The notes beneath the pieces are model-generated. The model had not been told where the DNA came from. It ran no database searches and saw nothing but the letters and a program-made list of their open reading frames with translations. A stretch of DNA of 64,000 bases, taken from positions 2,307 to 66,306 of the IMG/VR virus record IMGVR_UViG_3300017917_002280; one strand, written 5' to 3'. Made by a program: the position numbers and the translations under genes. Source of the DNA: a virus. Numbering within the stretch: the first letter of the stretch is position 1; every line of letters begins with the position of its first letter. Shown here piece after piece: positions 2,464 through 64,000 of the stretch.

Positions 2464-2850
2464 TTAACGGTTGGGTTTGGCAATCTTTTTATTTGTTTGG
2501 ATTGCTACCTTTGGCTTTGCCTGCATCTTGTCTGCATTTCTCTTTGTATATACCTTGAATAAAATAAGATACCCAAGCAAATCATCTATATCATTGTCTC
2601 CCGGATATGATTGATTATTTGCAATACGATTTAACTTATCATCAATTCGTGATGCAAGACTTTCTGCATGACTGGACTTTGAAAATATTGGTCTAGGATT
2701 CAAAGCCGAGTCTCCATATGATATATTTTTCTCAATTAAAAGTCTTGTAATCTGCATTCCAACTTCAAAAATATCTCTGCCAGATGGAGCTTTTTCAATT
2801 AGTTCCATAAGGTCGTCCGAGAATAAACTATTCCAATCTTTTTCTATCAT
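2464..2850 (-). CDS. Nucleotide-modification-associated domain 1 (DUF1599-like) protein
   Basis: KNISYGDS...RIDDKLNRI...DDLLGYLIL pattern of the all-alpha Nmad1/DUF1599 family. Confidence 0.6.
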   Translation of the reverse strand: MIEKDWNSLFSDDLMELIEKAPSGRDIFEVGMQITRLLIEKNISYGDSALNPRPIFSKSSHAESLASRIDDKLNRIANNQSYPGDNDIDDLLGYLILFKVYTKRNADKMQAKPKVAIQTNKKIAKPNR

Positions 2851-3005
2851 TTCCAACTCCTTTGATTTCTTATAAGACCATATTCTACCAGATAACGATA
2901 AATTGTTTGGTGGCTAGTGCTGCATTCCTTTGCAATTTCTTCAATTGTTTTCTTATCTATCTGATATCTTTTTGTTAACCACGCCTTGTTTTTATAAAGC
3001 TTCAT
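2847..3005 (-). CDS. Small HTH DNA-binding protein (52 aa)
   Basis: Manual translation MKLYKNKAWLTKRYQIDKKTIEEIAKECSTSHQTIYRYLVEYGL. ATGA-type overlap with the next gene. Confidence 0.7.
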   Translation of the reverse strand: MKLYKNKAWLTKRYQIDKKTIEEIAKECSTSHQTIYRYLVEYGLIRNQRSWK

Positions 3006-10056: not shown

Positions 10057-10086
10057 ATTATACACCACCGCCCCCAGCTTTGTCAA
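10057..10086 (-). promoter_or_regulatory. Sigma70/SigA-type promoter for dnaE (TTGACA-N18-TATAAT)
   Basis: Minus strand TTGACA at 10086-10081 and TATAAT at 10062-10057. The -10 lies in the loop of a GGCGGTGG/CCACCGCC inverted repeat. Confidence 0.75.
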
Positions 10087-10786: not shown

Positions 10787-10815
10787 ATTATATCAGAAAA
10801 GTGGCGGTGTGTCAA
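10787..10815 (-). promoter_or_regulatory. Consensus promoter for ssb (TTGACA-N17-TATAAT, extended TG)
   Basis: Minus strand TTGACA at 10815-10810 and TGaTATAAT ending at 10787. Confidence 0.75.
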
Positions 10816-57920: not shown

Positions 57921-58009
57921 TATATTTATAATATATATAATATATATAAATTTTAAATATTATTTATATTTATTATTATTTATATATAAATAATAATAAA
58001 TAAATTATA
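57921..58009. other. 89-bp A/T-only tract with a 36-bp perfect palindrome (candidate origin or divergent control region)
   Basis: No G or C from 57921 to 58009. Palindrome spans 57967-58002. Lies at a divergent strand switch. Confidence 0.6.
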
Positions 58010-58026
58010 CACGAAAGGTTTTTATC

Positions 58027-58719
58027 TTGATTAAAGTTCTTGACAATGGTTATGTAAAATTGATTAACAATATGGGTTCTGACATTGATGTTGTTAATGC
58101 TGCTAGAGCTTCTTTTGAAAAAGAAGTTTCTGAAATGTCAGAGGGTGATGATAAACTATTACGATTCCTGATTGAACATAAACATGATTCAACTTTGAGG
58201 CACTGCACTATGACTTTTGAAGTCTACGCACCGTTGATGGTCGCTCGCCAATGGTATAAGCATGCGGTAGCAAGCACACACTTGGACGACCAGATGGGCT
58301 GGAACGAGTCAAGTCGCAGGTATATAACCGAAAATGAGGTCTTTTATATTCCCGAGCCAGAGCAATGGCGTTCCATGCCGGAAAATAAGAAGCAAGGCTC
58401 TGGTGGTCCGGTTTCGCCAGAAGTCGGCAACAAGTTTGAGGAATTGATGAATCGCACGGTGGAACTAGGGCTTGCGAATTACAGAGAAGCACTTTCGGCA
58501 AATATAGCCCCAGAACAGGCAAGGCTACTATTGCCTGCATACTCTATGTATGTTCGCTGGCGTTGGACAACATCTTTGAACTCCGTTCTTCACTTTCTTT
58601 CTTTGAGATTGAAGAATGATTCCCAATTTGAAATCCGGGAATACGCAAAGGCCATCTTGACTCAAATTGAGGATATATATCCAAGATCTATCGAACATTG
58701 GATGAATACCCGTGTCTGA
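58027..58719 (+). CDS. thyX: Flavin-dependent thymidylate synthase
   Basis: VVNAARASF, VARQWYKH, WNESSRRY, EQARLLLP, FLSLR and SQFEIREYA. Confidence 0.93.
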   Translation: MIKVLDNGYVKLINNMGSDIDVVNAARASFEKEVSEMSEGDDKLLRFLIEHKHDSTLRHCTMTFEVYAPLMVARQWYKHAVASTHLDDQMGWNESSRRYITENEVFYIPEPEQWRSMPENKKQGSGGPVSPEVGNKFEELMNRTVELGLANYREALSANIAPEQARLLLPAYSMYVRWRWTTSLNSVLHFLSLRLKNDSQFEIREYAKAILTQIEDIYPRSIEHWMNTRV

Positions 58720-58924
58720 GTCAAATGAAAACACCCCCGAAATTTTGAACATGGATGAAAATCTAGGCGCTCTTCTTTACATTATGCTTGGAAGAGTGTA
58801 TGATATGCTCGTGATTATCGCAGATAGTCAAGGAAAGGGTGAAGACGCAGCGAAGCTGATGAAACTTCACCAAGAGGGACAACTTATGTGTCCCCCGCCA
58901 AGTTTGGCTTTCGACAACGAATAG
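58712..58924 (+). CDS. Hypothetical protein
   Basis: 70-aa ORF overlapping the end of thyX. Confidence 0.6.
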   Translation: MSESNENTPEILNMDENLGALLYIMLGRVYDMLVIIADSQGKGEDAAKLMKLHQEGQLMCPPPSLAFDNE

Positions 58925-58933
58925 GAGAAAAAA

Positions 58934-59458
58934 TTGACTTGCATTGTTGCTGTAACAGATGGTAAAACCGTTCATATGGCTGCCGATAGAGGTGCTAGCG
59001 ATGGACATGTGATTTTGAAGCTAGCAAAGCCTAAGATTCATAAAAATGGAGAATATCTCATCGGATATGCTGGATCTATGTCTGGTGGACAGCTTTTGCA
59101 ATCAATCGCCCTTCCCGCCATTCCTAAGAAGGAACTTCACTCATTCATGCGTACAGGCTTTTTAAAGGCCCTTAGAGACGCGATTGAAAATTATGGTATT
59201 GGAACATCAGAAGCAGATGAATCTGTCATCCTCGTGGCTTGTAGGGGTCGTATATTCGAAATTAGCCCTAGTGATTGGAGTGTTGCAGAATGGAGATCAA
59301 CTGCCATCGGTTCTGGAGCACCTGTGGCTCTTGGAGCCATGTATGTCATGGAGTCAAATGGAGTTGAAGATTACAAAACCATTGTTACCACCGCCGTTGA
59401 AGCTGCCTGCGAATTGTCTCCAACTTGCAAATTGCCCATCGATTACGAGACAATTTAA
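58934..59458 (+). CDS. HslV / proteasome-beta-like Ntn threonine protease
   Basis: M-T-CIVAV (Thr nucleophile), MAAD, KI, IGYAGS and AIGSGA..ALGAM. Confidence 0.75.
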   Translation: MTCIVAVTDGKTVHMAADRGASDGHVILKLAKPKIHKNGEYLIGYAGSMSGGQLLQSIALPAIPKKELHSFMRTGFLKALRDAIENYGIGTSEADESVILVACRGRIFEISPSDWSVAEWRSTAIGSGAPVALGAMYVMESNGVEDYKTIVTTAVEAACELSPTCKLPIDYETI

Positions 59459-59641
59459 AACACCCACACAAATAGTACCTATTTTAGAAAAATGTGAATA
59501 ATATTTTTTCTTGTACGATACACGATTTCTGGCAAAAAATCCCTTAATAAATAGTGAGCACATACGGCGTGTCGCCTTTGCGATGTCGTACCCCTATGCT
59601 AGTGTTCTACCTATCAGCAAGGACAACCGAAAGGAAATGAA

Positions 59642-59767
59642 ATGCTCTCCATCGCCACCTACGCCGCCGTCCTCTCCCGCATGGTCGGTGAGGGTACTTT
59701 CGACCTGACGGCTGATGAGGCTCAGGCTCTCATCGCCGCCGCCGTCAACGACAAGGCGTACCTCTAA
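59642..59767 (+). CDS. Microprotein (41 aa)
   Basis: MLSIATYAAVLSRMVGEG... with GAAAGG RBS and an upstream promoter. Confidence 0.7.
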   Translation: MLSIATYAAVLSRMVGEGTFDLTADEAQALIAAAVNDKAYL

Positions 59768-59774
59768 CGACTAA

Positions 59775-59796
59775 GGTGGGGGCGAAAGCCCCCACC
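59775..59796 (+). terminator. GC hairpin with GAAA tetraloop
   Basis: ggtgggggc-GAAA-gcccccacc directly after a stop codon. Confidence 0.65.
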
Positions 59797-59850
59797 GATG
59801 TCAGACCCTTGTGCTAGTATCTGACTAAGAACCGAATGAAAGGCTACAAA

Positions 59851-59994
59851 ATGAACGCAAAGACTATCGCCACCTACCGCGCCAAGTGCGAGGCTCAGGG
59901 TTTCGATTGGGCAGACTACTGCGACTGTGACGAGTGGACACTCTCAATGCTGTTTGACACTTGGGAAGAAGACGAAAGCGAGGACTACCTCTGA
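59851..59994 (+). CDS. Acidic microprotein (47 aa)
   Basis: MNAKTIATYRAKCEAQGFDW...EEDESEDYL with GAAAGG RBS. Confidence 0.7.
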   Translation: MNAKTIATYRAKCEAQGFDWADYCDCDEWTLSMLFDTWEEDESEDYL

Positions 59995-60239
59995 TGAGTG
60001 ACCGTAACGAAATGTTTGACCACTTTCTAGATGAGTGCTACCCAACTGTAAACATTGTGGGGATTGACTTCTACCCTGCCGACATTCTGTTTGAGTGTGA
60101 CCCGATTGCGTATCGCGTTGCGATGAATGATTGGTTTGACGCGCAATGCTCTGACGGCATTCACAACTCAATCAGCGAAGGCTACAGCGTTTGCGATTGG
60201 TGCGGTGAGGATGTGCGCGATGAGGATGGTGACGAATGA
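59994..60239 (+). CDS. Acidic small protein (81 aa)
   Basis: TGATG coupling. FLDECYP...CDPIAYR...DW phage-type motif. Confidence 0.7.
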   Translation: MSDRNEMFDHFLDECYPTVNIVGIDFYPADILFECDPIAYRVAMNDWFDAQCSDGIHNSISEGYSVCDWCGEDVRDEDGDE

Positions 60240-60295
60240 CCACACTATTTATTCTCGCCATCATCCTGTTTGCTTCTGCGATGTTCGTGCCTTAA
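60236..60295 (+). CDS. Hydrophobic peptide (19 aa)
   Basis: MTTLFILAIILFASAMFVP with ATGA coupling. Confidence 0.45.
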   Translation: MTTLFILAIILFASAMFVP

Positions 60296-60408
60296 ATCCC
60301 TTGTAAATAAAGGGTTTTTCGCACCCTCAAATTTCCCTTATTCCATAAGGGTTTTTTGGGGGTCGCGGAGCGCCCCCGGACAAATCCGACATTTAAGACA
60401 GTTACGAA

Positions 60409-60424
60409 TGTGACGCAGTTCACA
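60409..60424. promoter_or_regulatory. CRP/GlxR-consensus box
   Basis: TGTGA-CGCAGT-TCACA, a perfect match. Confidence 0.65.
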
Positions 60425-60611
60425 GAAAATTCTAAATTCGGACATTCAGGACATACATTTATGCATTCGGAGTGCATAAAAAATCCCTTACGGAATAAGG
60501 GTTTTTCAGCTGTCTATGCATAGGTATGCATAAGAAATACCTACCCCGCTGTGAAGTGTGTCAGGGGGGTATGCTAAGATGGGGGGTATCAACCAAACGA
60601 AAGGGCATCTA

Positions 60612-60857
60612 ATGTCTACTGTGAACCTTGTCAAGTCCCGTACTGTTGGTGGTATCCGCTTCACCACCCCCGCCATCGGCATGGAAATCACCACGCCTAG
60701 CGGCGATTGGGGTATGGTGTATGAGGTCGCACCTCACACCACCAAAGATGGGCGCGAGTCGTATCGCTGTCGCATCGCCAAGTCTCACCGCCACGAGTCT
60801 CGTTGGGTGACTGTCTATTGGTTGCGCTGTGATGGTGAGCGTTACACCGTAATCTAA
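60612..60857 (+). CDS. Small protein (81 aa)
   Basis: MSTVNLVKSR... following a GAAAGGG RBS and promoter. Confidence 0.7.
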   Translation: MSTVNLVKSRTVGGIRFTTPAIGMEITTPSGDWGMVYEVAPHTTKDGRESYRCRIAKSHRHESRWVTVYWLRCDGERYTVI

Positions 60858-60910
60858 TGTCGTACCCTTGTGGTACACTCACCCTAACCAACCAAACGAA
60901 AGGCAAACTA

Positions 60911-61075
60911 ATGGCTAGTCTTGAATCTGTCGGCGCACTTGTTGACGCTATTCAGGCATCGGGCAGGACAACCGACAGGGGTTCCGCTTATGCCTACGCT
61001 ATGGGTATGGTTTCATCATACCTTGACGATGCGCTTATTGAGCGCATGACCAACGACATGAAGGCAGGTGCGTGA
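60911..61075 (+). CDS. Microprotein (54 aa)
   Basis: MASLESVGALVDAI...YAYAMG with RBS. Confidence 0.7.
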   Translation: MASLESVGALVDAIQASGRTTDRGSAYAYAMGMVSSYLDDALIERMTNDMKAGA

Positions 61076-61212
61076 TGGGTGCGATGAAAGACCTTGTGAA
61101 TGCAGGGTGCTACTACTGTGGCGAGGACAACCCAACCGAACTGCGTAACTATGGCGAGATTGTTGCTATCTGCGAAAACTGTGCAACACTTGAGAGTGGG
61201 GAGTGTGTCTGA
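61075..61212 (+). CDS. Zinc-finger microprotein (45 aa)
   Basis: CYYCG...CENCATLESGECV with TGATG coupling. Confidence 0.65.
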   Translation: MGAMKDLVNAGCYYCGEDNPTELRNYGEIVAICENCATLESGECV

Positions 61213-61319
61213 TGTTTTTATTCTATGCGCTTGTTTCTGTTGGTGCTGTGTTGTGGTTTGTTGATTTCATCGGTTGGGTGAATAAGCAAATCGAACCCGA
61301 GAAATCCCTTATTCCATAA
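61212..61319 (+). CDS. Hydrophobic peptide (35 aa)
   Basis: MFLFYALVSVGAVLWFVDFIGW... The stop lies inside a CCCTT box. Confidence 0.5.
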   Translation: MFLFYALVSVGAVLWFVDFIGWVNKQIEPEKSLIP

Positions 61320-61406
61320 GGGTTTTTTCGACCCCCGAAAATCCCTTTGTTTATAAGGGTTTTTCGCCCCTGCGGGGCGCCCCCGGACAATTCGGACATT
61401 TAAGTC

Positions 61407-61422
61407 TGTGATACGAATCACA
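61407..61422. promoter_or_regulatory. CRP/GlxR-consensus box
   Basis: TGTGA-TACGAA-TCACA, a perfect match. Confidence 0.65.
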
Positions 61423-61523
61423 CAGAAACTCTCAGGAAACTCTAAAGATTCATCGGCGTGTCGCGTAGGTAATGTCAGTACCTTGTGCTAAGATGAGGGC
61501 ATCACCGAATGAAAGGGCAACTA

Positions 61524-61688
61524 ATGACCACTCTCAAACTTCCGACCTCTTGGAACTACAGCACTTCTATGTACCGCAAGTGGACTTGTAAGGACTGTGG
61601 CTTCTCCATTGAGGGTTCCACCTCTTACCGCCTGTTCCGAAAGGCTTGGGACGCTAACCACCTCACCAAACACAATGCGAATGCCTGA
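61524..61688 (+). CDS. C2H2-like zinc microprotein (54 aa)
   Basis: WTCKDCG...HLTKH with RBS and promoter. Confidence 0.7.
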   Translation: MTTLKLPTSWNYSTSMYRKWTCKDCGFSIEGSTSYRLFRKAWDANHLTKHNANA

Positions 61689-61744
61689 CCTTTGTCAGAC
61701 CCTTGTGCTAAGATGTACCCATCACCCAAACGAAAGGCAAACTA

Positions 61745-61873
61745 ATGACCGAGCCAATGTATGACGCCCACTCTTTGGACTTCTGTAACTACTGTGGTGA
61801 CCCTGCCACCGAAAGCCGTATTGACTACGCAGTATGCGAATACTGCGCGACTTTGGAAAGTGGTGAGTGCTGA
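61745..61873 (+). CDS. Zinc-finger microprotein (42 aa), paralogue of 61075-61212
   Basis: CNYCG...CEYCATLESGEC. Confidence 0.7.
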   Translation: MTEPMYDAHSLDFCNYCGDPATESRIDYAVCEYCATLESGEC

Positions 61874-61977
61874 TGAAGGTTTCGCCTTGGGTCAAGTGTC
61901 CCGACTGCGGTAAACTTCATATCGCCGTGAGTTTCAAGTTTGTTTGTCAATGCGGAAAAGAGTTAGGGGTAAAGTGA
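61873..61977 (+). CDS. Zinc-ribbon microprotein (34 aa)
   Basis: CPDCGK...CQCG with TGATG coupling. Confidence 0.6.
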   Translation: MKVSPWVKCPDCGKLHIAVSFKFVCQCGKELGVK

Positions 61978-62087
61978 TGGACGGAATCATCTATGCGCTT
62001 TGTATCATCGGATTCGCTAGTGCTATCTGCTCCTTGGGCGTAGTGCTTAGCGATCAGTGGGAGAAGCGCCAAAACCCTTTAGAATAA
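61977..62087 (+). CDS. Hydrophobic peptide (36 aa)
   Basis: MDGIIYALCIIGFASAICSLGVVL... The stop lies inside a CCCTT box. Confidence 0.55.
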   Translation: MDGIIYALCIIGFASAICSLGVVLSDQWEKRQNPLE

Positions 62088-62181
62088 AGGGAAATCTAGA
62101 ACCCTAGAAAACCCTTTGTTTGTAAGGGTTTTTAGCCCCTGCGGGGCGCCCCGCCGAGATCACTTTGTCAAGCCTTACGAG

Positions 62182-62197
62182 TGTGATAAGAGCCACA
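62182..62197. promoter_or_regulatory. CRP/GlxR-like box (1 mismatch)
   Basis: TGTGA-TAAGAG-CCACA. Confidence 0.55.
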
Positions 62198-62288
62198 AAG
62201 AAATCTCACAGGCATTCGGCGTGTCGCGGCGTGAATGTCAGACCCTTGTGCTAGGCTTACTCTTGTAAGCGAAACGAAAGGACACGCA

Positions 62289-62423
62289 ATGAGCGCGATG
62301 AAGGCAGTCTACACCCAGCTCCAAATCTGGGGCATCAACCCCGAAACCGCAACCGATGAGGACATCAGCGCGGCATTCAATGTGTGCTTCACCCTTGACT
62401 ATGAGAACGGGGGTTGGGCATAG
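62289..62423 (+). CDS. Microprotein (44 aa)
   Basis: MSAMKAVYTQLQIWG... with RBS and promoter. Confidence 0.7.
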   Translation: MSAMKAVYTQLQIWGINPETATDEDISAAFNVCFTLDYENGGWA

Positions 62424-62475
62424 GGTGTCAGACCCCTATGCTATGCTCTCCTCATACCCGATGAAAGGACAACTA

Positions 62476-62694
62476 ATGAAACTTCAGACTTGGACTTGCG
62501 CGAATGGTTGCGGCGAGTGGACTACCGAAGTCCCCGAATGCTTCCAATACAACGGCGCAGAAGTGTTGTGCGTCTTCTGCCTCGTCAAGCAGAATAGTCA
62601 CAAGGTGTTTGAGGCGCTTGCTGAAGAGGCTCCCATTGTTGCCGCCTATCAGCCCGCGCCATTTGCACCTATCCAATACATCAGGGCGAGTTAG
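62476..62694 (+). CDS. Cys-containing small protein (72 aa)
   Basis: WTCANGCG...LCVFC with RBS and promoter. Confidence 0.7.
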   Translation: MKLQTWTCANGCGEWTTEVPECFQYNGAEVLCVFCLVKQNSHKVFEALAEEAPIVAAYQPAPFAPIQYIRAS

Positions 62695-62751
62695 TCACTC
62701 GCCCGATGTCAGACCCCTGTGGTAGCATTCACTCAAACGAAAGGACAACTA

Positions 62752-62922
62752 ATGACCAAGGACGAAATCCTAGACCTACTGCGTACTCGCGCAGAAAACT
62801 GCGCCATTGTGCGCGATAACTACACGATGACTGACGACTGCTTCTCGCACTCGCGTCATTGGGAAATCCAACGCTTGACCCTGCTTGACATCATCGCCTA
62901 CATCGAACACAACTCTAACTGA
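62752..62922 (+). CDS. Microprotein (56 aa)
   Basis: MTKDEILDLLR... with RBS and promoter. Confidence 0.7.
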   Translation: MTKDEILDLLRTRAENCAIVRDNYTMTDDCFSHSRHWEIQRLTLLDIIAYIEHNSN

Positions 62923-62934
62923 AAGGTACAGCAA

Positions 62935-63090
62935 ATGGAAATCCACCTCTTCTCGCAACAGGTCAAAGGTCTGATGATTGCTGGCACAGACTTTGACTTC
63001 TACCTGTCCACCCGCGCTCTTATCATCATCGGTGCGCTTGCCCTCGCCGTTGGTGTGTTGCGCCGTATCAAGAAGGTGCGTGGTCTCTGA
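62935..63090 (+). CDS. Membrane microprotein (51 aa)
   Basis: GAAAGG RBS. TM segment ALIIIGALALAVGVL followed by a basic tail. Confidence 0.6.
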   Translation: MEIHLFSQQVKGLMIAGTDFDFYLSTRALIIIGALALAVGVLRRIKKVRGL

Positions 63091-63263
63091 TGATGACACG
63101 CAAGGACTACATCGCAACCGCTTCCATCTTGGAAAGTGTGAAAGATGAAATGCCAAAGCATATTCACTTCACGCTCGTTGATATGTTCGCGGAGATGATG
63201 GAGAAGGACAATCCGCGCTTTGACGCAAAGCGTTTCTTTGAGGCAAGCGGAATGCCCTTGTAA
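63090..63263 (+). CDS. Small phage protein (MTRKDY...DNPRFD family)
   Basis: Motif recurrent in actinophage early regions. The stop lies inside a CCCTT box. Confidence 0.7.
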   Translation: MMTRKDYIATASILESVKDEMPKHIHFTLVDMFAEMMEKDNPRFDAKRFFEASGMPL

Positions 63264-63384
63264 ATAAAGGGGAAACTCGCATCCGCTACGGCGGGTGCGG
63301 GGCGCCCCGCCCAGAGGCGGGGCATTACTTACGATTGTCAGACCCTCATGGTATGTTCTACCTACAACAACGAAAGGACTCCCC

Positions 63385-63531
63385 ATGTACAAGGCAATCG
63401 CTGAGGAGAACTGCGGTCTCTGTCACGGCACAGGCACTTGGTTCTTTTCCATTGGTGAGAATGACTACGGCAAGGACATTTGCGAATGTGTACAGTTGGT
63501 CAGGGTTTCATTCATCACTATTCACGAGTAG
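63385..63531 (+). CDS. Zinc-binding microprotein (48 aa)
   Basis: CGLCHGTG...CEC with RBS and promoter. Confidence 0.7.
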   Translation: MYKAIAEENCGLCHGTGTWFFSIGENDYGKDICECVQLVRVSFITIHE

Positions 63532-63659
63532 GCCCCGCCGAAAGGGGGCGCCCCGCCGATCTTAGCCATTTACGGCCAATTACTTTATGACCCGGAAACT
63601 TCCAGATTCTGCGGCGTGTCGTTCAGGCGATGTCAGACCCCTGTGCTAAGGTTCTGCCT

Positions 63660-63941
63660 ATGAACGCGCTCACAGCCCTCAAATCCCATTCCACCTCTAT
63701 CCCTGACCACATCGCTGATACCTATGCTGAAATGGAGTACGCTATGCTCAATGCCAACCTTGTCGCCGTCACCCTCGCGTGTGACTTCTGCCCGAACACT
63801 TGGGAGATTGACGCGCCTGCCGACTACAAGCCCGCGCCCGATGCCGAGTTGATGTGCGAGGCTTGCGCTGACGAGTGGCAGTGGTTTGATGCGTCCGAGG
63901 ACTCCTACCTTGATTCCTACTGGGAGTCTATGTACGAGTAA
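63660..63941 (+). CDS. Acidic zinc-binding protein (93 aa), leaderless
   Basis: ATG lies 7 nt after TAAGGT. CDFC...CEAC...EDSYLDSYWESMYE. Confidence 0.7.
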   Translation: MNALTALKSHSTSIPDHIADTYAEMEYAMLNANLVAVTLACDFCPNTWEIDAPADYKPAPDAELMCEACADEWQWFDASEDSYLDSYWESMYE

Positions 63942-64000
63942 TCTCTGCGTGGGGGCTTGACAAAGCCCCCACAAGGGGGCGCCCCGCCCAAAGGCGGGGC

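Follow-up and report, generated by a model that had tools for sequence, protein, structure and literature searches.

Mycobacterial promoters of the RecA-NDp class, which depend on the activator PafBC, carry a GTC-bearing -26 element placed exactly 10 nucleotides (nt) ahead of a TAnnnT -10 motif and have no -35 hexamer (PMC8635444, PMC6789036). Their consensus reads tGTCgg(N10)tA(N3)T, in which the -26 element spans -28 to -23, and PafBC inserts between domain 4 of SigA and this element, a mode of action termed sigma adaptation (PMC8635444). PafBC is activated by single-stranded DNA (ssDNA) (PMC11804915). The stretch of viral DNA analysed here (the window) comprises 64,000 nt, bases 2307-66306 of the 66,306-base linear IMG/VR record IMGVR_UViG_3300017917_002280 (handle G000). 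Close to its end lies an array of tiny open reading frames (ORFs) that is served by eleven sites of the same geometry. These predicted promoters are near-certainly genuine, clade-wide members of the RecA-NDp sequence class. The explanation favoured for them, held to be reasonably likely, is that they are early promoters built for host SigA and host PafBC.

Taking TAnnnT as the -10, TGTCAG covers positions -28 to -23 and a longer form of the element, TGTCAGACCC, covers -28 to -19. This longer form is shared with RecA-NDp-type sites at recA, radA and dnaN of other Actinomycetota. The array differs from that class in being phage-borne, in its tandem arrangement of at least 11 sites ahead of tiny ORFs of unknown function, and in its far greater uniformity with an extended -10 at every site. 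Middle promoters of phage T4 (MotA/AsiA, sigma appropriation) also have no -35 and rely on a factor that connects domain 4 of sigma with a promoter element around -30, a comparison which the PafBC authors draw themselves (PMC8635444). Both T4 factors are phage-encoded and remodel sigma, whereas no phage activator was found here and the proposed factor is a host damage sensor. BrxR and CapW are WYL-domain host repressors of defence genes that sense ssDNA (PMC9122601, PMC11662680). A WYL ssDNA sensor would likewise stand at the phage-host interface in the present system, with the difference that the phage would exploit a WYL activator. The host-takeover and pre-early arrays of SPO1 and T5 are composed of small genes near a genome end, with their own promoter and ribosome-binding site and with terminators, a layout that the array in the window resembles; their promoters are ordinary housekeeping-sigma promoters with a -35, which the phage array lacks. 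In the temperate phages 186 (tum of this coliphage), CTXphi and GIL01, genes are placed under LexA/SOS control through repressor operators. Phage transcription is there tied to the host DNA-damage signal, as is proposed here, but the promoters of the window would be of the activator type and are found in arrays. A literature search, with most subscription journals and supplements outside its reach, found no description of PafBC-type promoters in phages.

The window has 15 matches to TGTCRK-N10-TANNNT, whereas 100 shuffles gave 2.64 ± 1.59 (at most 7; none of the 100 reached 15), and 11 of the 15 are packed into 4.1 kb (59584-63652), all on the + strand (Table 1). They are the eleven sites that an earlier note on this DNA had listed, nine with the core hexamer TGTCAG and two (59584 and 60858) with TGTCGT. 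The note had also described the 10-nt spacing and the TG of an extended -10 as constant, and this holds at 11/11 sites, the TG being at -15/-14 (positions 14-15 of the site). The intervening 10 nt, which it took to be variable, are instead conserved as ACCCYTRTGS: their composition is A(9/11) C(9) C(10) C(10) Y T(10) R T(11) G(11) S, and the sole outlier is the site at 60559, which has a G-run. The aligned consensus of the eleven sites is TGTCAGACCCYTRTGSTAnnnT, with positions 1-4, 14-15, 17-18 and 22 invariant. Further upstream, the region from -19 to -1 relative to TGTC shows no conserved hexamer (information at most 0.7 bit, with one G at 1.3), hence the array sites are considered to have no -35. 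The base directly before the element is A in 7/11 sites. Absence of a conserved TTGACA, already remarked upon in the note, contrasts with the perfect TTGACA-N17/18-TATAAT promoters found upstream of dnaE and ssb (two in the window vs 0.11 expected). Since these replication genes have perfect -35/-10 promoters, the missing -35 is specific to the array. All eleven sites (11/11) fit the published PafBC geometry exactly.

An ATG is found 23-36 nt past the -10 at 10/11 sites, behind a conserved leader AACGAAAGG-N6-7. At the eleventh it lies only 7 nt past the -10, and the transcript of this unit is therefore probably leaderless. The extended consensus is missing from the other four window matches (14074, 15458, 18136, 58136). 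The last of them (58136-58157, + strand, TGTCAGAGGGTGATGATAAACT), which is inside thyX, is a twelfth candidate having TG at positions 14-15 and an AGGG variant known from actinobacterial genomes; it could be a chance match or an internal promoter.

The motif recurs in related phages, as was found by the scan that the earlier note had proposed. The 18-mer TGTCAGACCCYTGTGCTA is present in 44 viral contigs, whose loci (480 kb) have 315 further loose-pattern sites on the seed strand vs 38 on the opposite strand. Among these 315 sites, ACC occupies positions 7-9 in 260, TG occupies positions 14-15 in 287, and A directly precedes the element in 80%. When ORFs were assigned by a crude first-start rule, one of at least 25 amino acids (aa) was found within 4-80 nt after 338/360 unique viral sites; the median length of these ORFs is 55 aa and 85% have at most 100 aa. 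The sites of five near-complete relatives are clustered near contig ends on a single strand. There are 18 sites within 5.2 kb in G037, 12 in G008 (89.9-96.5 kb) and about 11 in G023 (91.5-95.7 kb), where two more lie at the contig start; G010 carries two diverging sets, both in its first 10 kb. WhiB is encoded in 22/44 motif-bearing viral records and in 6/7 of the records that are at least 90% complete, including G008 and G023, on which ground the motif-bearing phages are taken to be actinophages. It was not found in G000, a fragment whose completeness is 54% by CheckV. In G033 a predicted promoter of this type is located 28 nt upstream of a WhiB-like ORF.

Sites that are so numerous and uniform might also be a decoy: 11-20 strong sites per genome, multiplied by replication, would titrate PafBC off host damage and defence genes. 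A reported link between pafBC and mycobacteriophage resistance (Rafique 2025, as cited in PMC12848934) is in line with this explanation. The ORF that follows nearly every viral site at a fixed short distance, in the window with a conserved ribosome-binding site, argues that the sites were built as promoters and that a sink effect could only be additional, and a decoy as such is regarded as very unlikely.

The same element is found in Actinomycetota chromosomes. The 22-mer has 7 matches in 596 Gb of prokaryote genomes, where about 9 are expected by chance at equal base frequencies, and one of them is a chromosomal site of G045, an Acidimicrobiales metagenome-assembled genome (locus L051/L072, GC content 0.64). 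A set of 401 Actinomycetota genomes has 149 sites of the form TGTCAGACCC-N6-TANNNT (reversed control: 5), spread over 54 genomes (9 of the 149 sites and one genome come from the unpublished G390). In G045, TGTCAG-N10-TANNNT is found 25 times vs 3 for the reversed control; 14/19 inspected sites read TGTCAGACCC and AAA stands before 15/19. The counts of TGTCRG-N10-TANNNT against the control are 33 vs 2 in G445, 15 vs 1 in G191 and 13 vs 0 in G357. These three genomes feature sub-variants with ACCCC and with G-runs, and the G-run form matches the outlier at 60559. According to Pfam naming, the element is upstream of recA in G045, G445 and G191, of radA-type and dnaN genes in G445 and G191, and of rmuC in G445, so that the resemblance to the RecA-NDp/PafBC consensus claimed in the note is borne out, at the level of sequence, in gene context as well as in geometry. 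In G071 it precedes genes coding a NAD-dependent ligase (ligA), an ExoIII-like nuclease and a SNF2-associated protein.

Other G045 sites are upstream of 5'-nucleotidase and luciferase-like oxidoreductase genes and of six DNA methyltransferase genes (L053, L055, L056, L057, L060, L064; form AAAAATGTCAGACCCC). The damage/defence regulon of G045-type genomes would include these methyltransferases, and their predicted promoters suggest a methylation that would be inducible by damage or by infection. At most of these G045 sites the gene start lies 6-10 nt past the -10. The AAATGTCAGACC variant is found in 1/121 genomes of the order of G045 (G045 itself) and the AATGTCAGACC form in 2/5 genomes of its family; as to the phage host, this distribution is only a hint, because the window sites, despite their frequent A at -1, are devoid of an A-tract. 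Note that G559, a second genome of the G045 family, has 15 sites of the form AAAAATGTCAGACCCC.

In each of G045, G445, G191 and G357 the WYL ORFs number exactly two and are adjacent to each other. Those of G045 match PafB (7p5x_AY, E 9e-18) and PafC (7p5x_AX, E 4e-22), and this pair retains the RMFERDK stretch with R46 and R50 of chain 7p5x_AY, the residues that read GTC (PMC8635444). The earlier note had considered a phage-encoded WYL mimic as another possible reader, and this idea found no support: WYL was detected in 0/44 motif-bearing viral records, in 0/7 near-complete ones and not in G000 (54% complete, so that genes may be missing), and HTH_PafC in 0/5 phages searched. Of the WYL and helix-turn-helix (HTH) genes that it proposed to look for, only the latter were met, in the form of a 52-aa HTH_11-like ORF with weak, sub-threshold matches present in G000, G008, G023 and G037 (4/5 phages). 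This ORF sits in the replication-gene block, in which dnaE and ssb have canonical promoters. One of its neighbours is a 193-aa ORF that resembles, by eye, a RuvC-type resolvase.

The TGTC core might be read by a host factor other than PafBC, for instance a second WYL-type or sigma-adaptation activator. Mycobacteria have the WYL activator SiwR besides PafBC (PMC10693628). G071 has 9 WYL matches, which would leave room for such a factor. The element also stands before the six methyltransferase genes of G045, and we know of no DNA methyltransferase genes in the PafBC regulon. The single tandem WYL pair in the four genomes named above, and the fact that in the inspected genomes the element mostly precedes genes of DNA repair and replication, speak for PafBC and make another host factor quite unlikely.

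Several points weigh against host PafBC as the reader of the array. The small conserved HTH ORF could code for an alternative reader, and the invariant extended -10 could allow SigA to start without an activator. The sites would then be activator-independent extended -10 promoters at which SigA starts from TRTGnTAnnnT, while TGTCAGACC would be bound by a phage protein (e.g., the product of the HTH ORF at 2847-3005) or by a timing repressor. The frequency of the extended -10 agrees with this explanation, as the TG present at all window sites and at most sites of the relatives is rarer in chromosomes (6/19 G045 sites and 6/20 sites in four other genomes), and so does the conservation of the HTH ORF among the phages. 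However, the same 10-nt element with the same spacing is found at recA, radA and dnaN of genomes without such a phage, and a phage-specific reader would have to be a coincidence or a PafB mimic. Furthermore, among phages with DnaE proteins that are only 58-73% identical, the element is conserved to the same degree as the -10, which fits a conserved host reader, and the HTH ORF belongs to the - strand replication block with its canonical dnaE and ssb promoters. Activator-independent initiation is accordingly viewed as unlikely.

The remaining points concern the host and the distribution of the sites. In 27 small genomes (at most 1.5 Mb), TGTCNN-N10-TANNNT is upstream of recA in only 4/27, and TGTCAGNCC-type sites are not enriched (11 vs 8 in the control); 4 of these 11 sites belong to G357, and 26/27 small genomes are without enrichment. 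Many small low-GC genomes (L093-L118) have before recA, in place of the TGTC element, palindromes like CGAAC-N4-GTTCG, which resemble LexA boxes, together with TTGACA. The wiring of the DNA-damage response therefore differs within the phylum sample, and the link to the host would fail if the phage host were one of the streamlined small-genome lineages. Five cultured actinophages do not show enrichment of the motif either (BillNye 0 vs 3 in the control, Coruscant 3 vs 5, Kenrey 1 vs 3, EvenBluerMoon 0, Boneham 0); the strategy is thus not general among actinophages.

The proposed mechanism, in which host SigA and host PafBC act together, would operate as follows. The SigA holoenzyme would find no usable -35 at the array sites, and ssDNA-loaded host PafBC would slot in between domain 4 of sigma and the -26 element and recruit the polymerase. 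The ssDNA could be provided by the incoming or replicating phage genome or by nuclease processing of that genome. Each transcript would begin about 7 nt past the -10 with a short leader that includes a GAAAGG ribosome-binding site (except in the one leaderless unit) and would end at a hairpin cluster. The ATG at 63660 and the gene starts of G045 fit the expected transcript start. The extended -10 (TRTGn) would be a phage-specific addition resulting in strong, perhaps leaky sites. Many small effectors, and in relatives also WhiB, would be delivered by the array as infection starts. A single host polymerase would in this way serve two classes of phage promoters, the perfect TTGACA-TATAAT ones of ssb and dnaE and those with a -26 element. 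What we infer from the DNA is the binding of PafBC and its activation by ssDNA, as well as the early timing, the positions at which transcripts begin, and the host.

The array content amounts to 11 predicted transcription units with 19 ORFs of 19-93 aa (Table 1). Pairs of CxxC are present in several of the ORFs, and the last gene of three multi-gene units is a short hydrophobic ORF. Translated homologues were found for 9/19 array ORFs in other motif-bearing viral loci, which argues that they are real genes. Pfam assigned no family to the array proteins (one sub-threshold match to a domain of unknown function only), while PHROGs yielded three families for 59994-60239 and two weak matches for other ORFs, all of unknown function. 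The 57-aa ORF of unit 9 is, by its recurrence, a predicted core small protein of such arrays. Units end with clusters of CCCTT-loop-AAGGG hairpins with T-runs, to which GC-rich hairpins are added. The 10-nt palindrome GGGGCGCCCC, of which five copies (61374, 62143, 63299, 63545, 63976) are found in the array only and none is expected, belongs to the GC-rich hairpins that separate units.

Four promoters are preceded, at 8 nt, by a second conserved element, CGGCGTGTCG(C/T), which itself holds another TGTCG. It marks promoters 5, 7 and 11, each the first after a terminator or hairpin cluster, and promoter 1 at the array start. Over the window and the 44 viral loci, GCGTGTCG is found 17-19 nt before TGTC at 16/409 extended -10-type sites from 10 sources. 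This upstream element could be a second PafBC contact or the site of another regulator.

Table 1. Coordinates of the array features and of other elements in the window (z as obtained for the hairpin regions)
Feature	Position	Strand	Remarks
Promoter 1	59584..59605	+	TGTCGT-N10-TAGTGT, TG at -15/-14
Promoter 2	59799..59820	+	TGTCAGACCCTTGTGCTAGTAT
Promoter 3	60559..60580	+	G-run variant TGTCAGGGGGGTATGCTAAGAT
Promoter 4	60858..60879	+	TGTCGTACCCTTGTGGTACACT
Promoter 5	61473..61494	+	TGTCAGTACCTTGTGCTAAGAT
Promoter 6	61693..61714	+	consensus copy, TGTCAGACCCTTGTGCTAAGAT
Promoter 7	62236..62257	+	
Promoter 8	62426..62447	+	
Promoter 9	62707..62728	+	
Promoter 10	63336..63357	+	
Promoter 11	63631..63652	+	ATG at 63660, 7 nt after -10
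Upstream element	59565..59575	+	CGGCGTGTCGC, 8 nt 5' of promoter 1
Upstream element	61454..61464	+	CGGCGTGTCGC, 8 nt 5' of promoter 5
Upstream element	62217..62227	+	CGGCGTGTCGC, 8 nt 5' of promoter 7
Upstream element	63612..63622	+	CGGCGTGTCGT, 8 nt 5' of promoter 11
ORF, 41 aa, unit 1	59642..59767	+	
ORF, 47 aa, unit 2	59851..59994	+	homologues in 3/44 viral loci
ORF, 81 aa, unit 2	59994..60239	+	PHROG 9294 (unknown function); homologues in 3 loci
ORF, 19 aa, end of unit 2	60236..60295	+	hydrophobic
ORF, 81 aa, unit 3	60612..60857	+	
ORF, 54 aa, unit 4	60911..61075	+	L043 copy 92% identical
ORF, 45 aa, unit 4	61075..61212	+	CxxC...CxxC; L043 copy 96% identical
ORF, 35 aa, end of unit 4	61212..61319	+	hydrophobic
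ORF, 54 aa, unit 5	61524..61688	+	homologues in 5 loci
ORF, 42 aa, unit 6	61745..61873	+	CxxC...CxxC
ORF, 34 aa, unit 6	61873..61977	+	CxxC...CxC
ORF, 36 aa, end of unit 6	61977..62087	+	hydrophobic
ORF, 44 aa, unit 7	62289..62423	+	
ORF, 72 aa, unit 8	62476..62694	+	Cys-rich; homologues in 2 loci
ORF, 56 aa, unit 9	62752..62922	+	
ORF, 51 aa, unit 9	62935..63090	+	hydrophobic stretch; homologues in 2 loci
ORF, 57 aa, unit 9	63090..63263	+	homologues in 22/44 viral loci; weak PHROG 19432 (unknown function), no Pfam family
ORF, 48 aa, unit 10	63385..63531	+	CxxC
ORF, 93 aa, unit 11	63660..63941	+	homologues in 2 loci
Terminator cluster	60294..60378	+	two CCCTT-loop-AAGGG hairpins with T-runs, then GC-rich stem
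Hairpin with T-run	60481..60507	+	CCCTT-loop-AAGGG
Terminator cluster	61302..61383	+	two hairpins with T-runs and GGGGCGCCCC palindrome; z -2.9
Terminator cluster	62071..62152	+	two hairpins, T-run on the second, and GGGGCGCCCC; z -4.9
Hairpin cluster	63251..63323	+	one CCCTT hairpin, two GC-rich hairpins without T-run; z -4.0
Two GC-rich hairpins	63949..64000	+	end of unit 11 and of contig; z -5.2
ORF, 174 aa, directly 5' of array	58934..59458	+	weak proteasome subunit family match, E 4e-5, 23.8 bits
dnaE promoter	10057..10086	-	perfect TTGACA-N18-TATAAT
ssb promoter	10787..10815	-	perfect TTGACA-N17-TATAAT
ORF, 52 aa, HTH-like	2847..3005	-	sub-threshold HTH_11 matches, 13-15 bits; in 4/5 phages

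Most of the window has a GC content of 32-42% and is coded mainly on the - strand. Coding switches to the + strand at about 57.9 kb, where thyX comes first and is followed by a proteasome-like Ntn hydrolase gene; the 174-aa ORF directly 5' of the array probably codes for a Ntn-hydrolase-like protein. The array extends from 59.5 kb to the contig end with a GC content of 45-55%, and all its units are on the + strand, while the replication and structural genes lie on the other one. The structural genes of the window code for a terminase-like protein, a 2752-aa tape measure protein and tail proteins, and the replication genes for DnaE, SSB, a primase and a DnaB-like helicase. A UvsX-like recombinase, a Cas4-type exonuclease and a class II ribonucleotide reductase are encoded in addition. 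No integrase or repressor was noted among the annotated window genes, no transfer RNA gene was found in the window, and the Rfam scan gave two sub-threshold matches to small RNAs only, at the window end. In blastn searches the array had no match among 50,697 phage records, and one promoter with its leader matched unrelated phages in the ribosome-binding-site part alone, never in the promoter.

By DnaE, the named phages closest to G000 are Streptomyces phages of the Stanwilliamsviridae (57% identity). The G000 DnaE is 73% identical to that of G008 and to that of G023, and G000 is therefore interpreted as a fragment of a phage of that type of about 96 kb. Together with the PafBC explanation, and at the same level of likelihood, the array is best understood as the truncated early or accessory arm of a lytic siphovirus of about 96 kb that would have an uncultured freshwater actinobacterium as host.

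The step in GC content between the array (45-55%) and the neighbouring genome (32-43%) raises the question of an assembly chimera or foreign cassette, all the more so as the contig depth over the array in run X1 (a possible source of this DNA, in which 0.99 of the sampled words occur) rises from 16.3 to 19 and then to 26.2, with contig breaks at 57921-58007 and 60080-60109. On the other side, the X1 contig 58008-60109 links the first two promoters with thyX and with the proteasome-like gene, and G008 and G023 have a like array at the same end. Arrays are 5-20 GC points above the rest of their own genome not only here but also in several relatives (L037, L023, L031, L007), and this recurrence equally argues against a chimera, which is judged extremely improbable. 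The array is cut by the contig end, since the X1 contig that starts at 60080 extends past 64000 into an apparent further promoter. Array pieces of at least 90% likeness are present in three further freshwater or lake runs from three studies (X2, X3, X7), whereas no RNA run was found to contain the stretch. The contigs of X2, X3 and X7 have joints that skip cassettes and a different cassette order, with 59975 joined to 63947 in three runs, which hints at reshuffling of cassettes among relatives, with the repeated promoters and terminators as exchange points, or else at a terminal repeat.

A broader proposal, doubtful at this stage, is that a clade of uncultured freshwater actinophages uses the PafBC ssDNA alarm of its host as a switch for its first genes (WhiB in at least one relative), while the 11-20 sites per genome would also titrate PafBC and blunt the damage/defence regulon of the host. 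As for the phage of the window, it would probably run its tiny-gene array off the host DNA-damage alarm. If so, these would be the first phage promoters built for a host sigma-adaptation activator, a host-factor counterpart of T4 MotA/AsiA. PafBC and WYL sensors would gain a second role, as a weak point exploited by phages, and this could help to explain the reported effect of pafBC on phage resistance. The 22-nt signature would mark early regions and may point to the hosts of uncultured actinophages that are without CRISPR-based host links.

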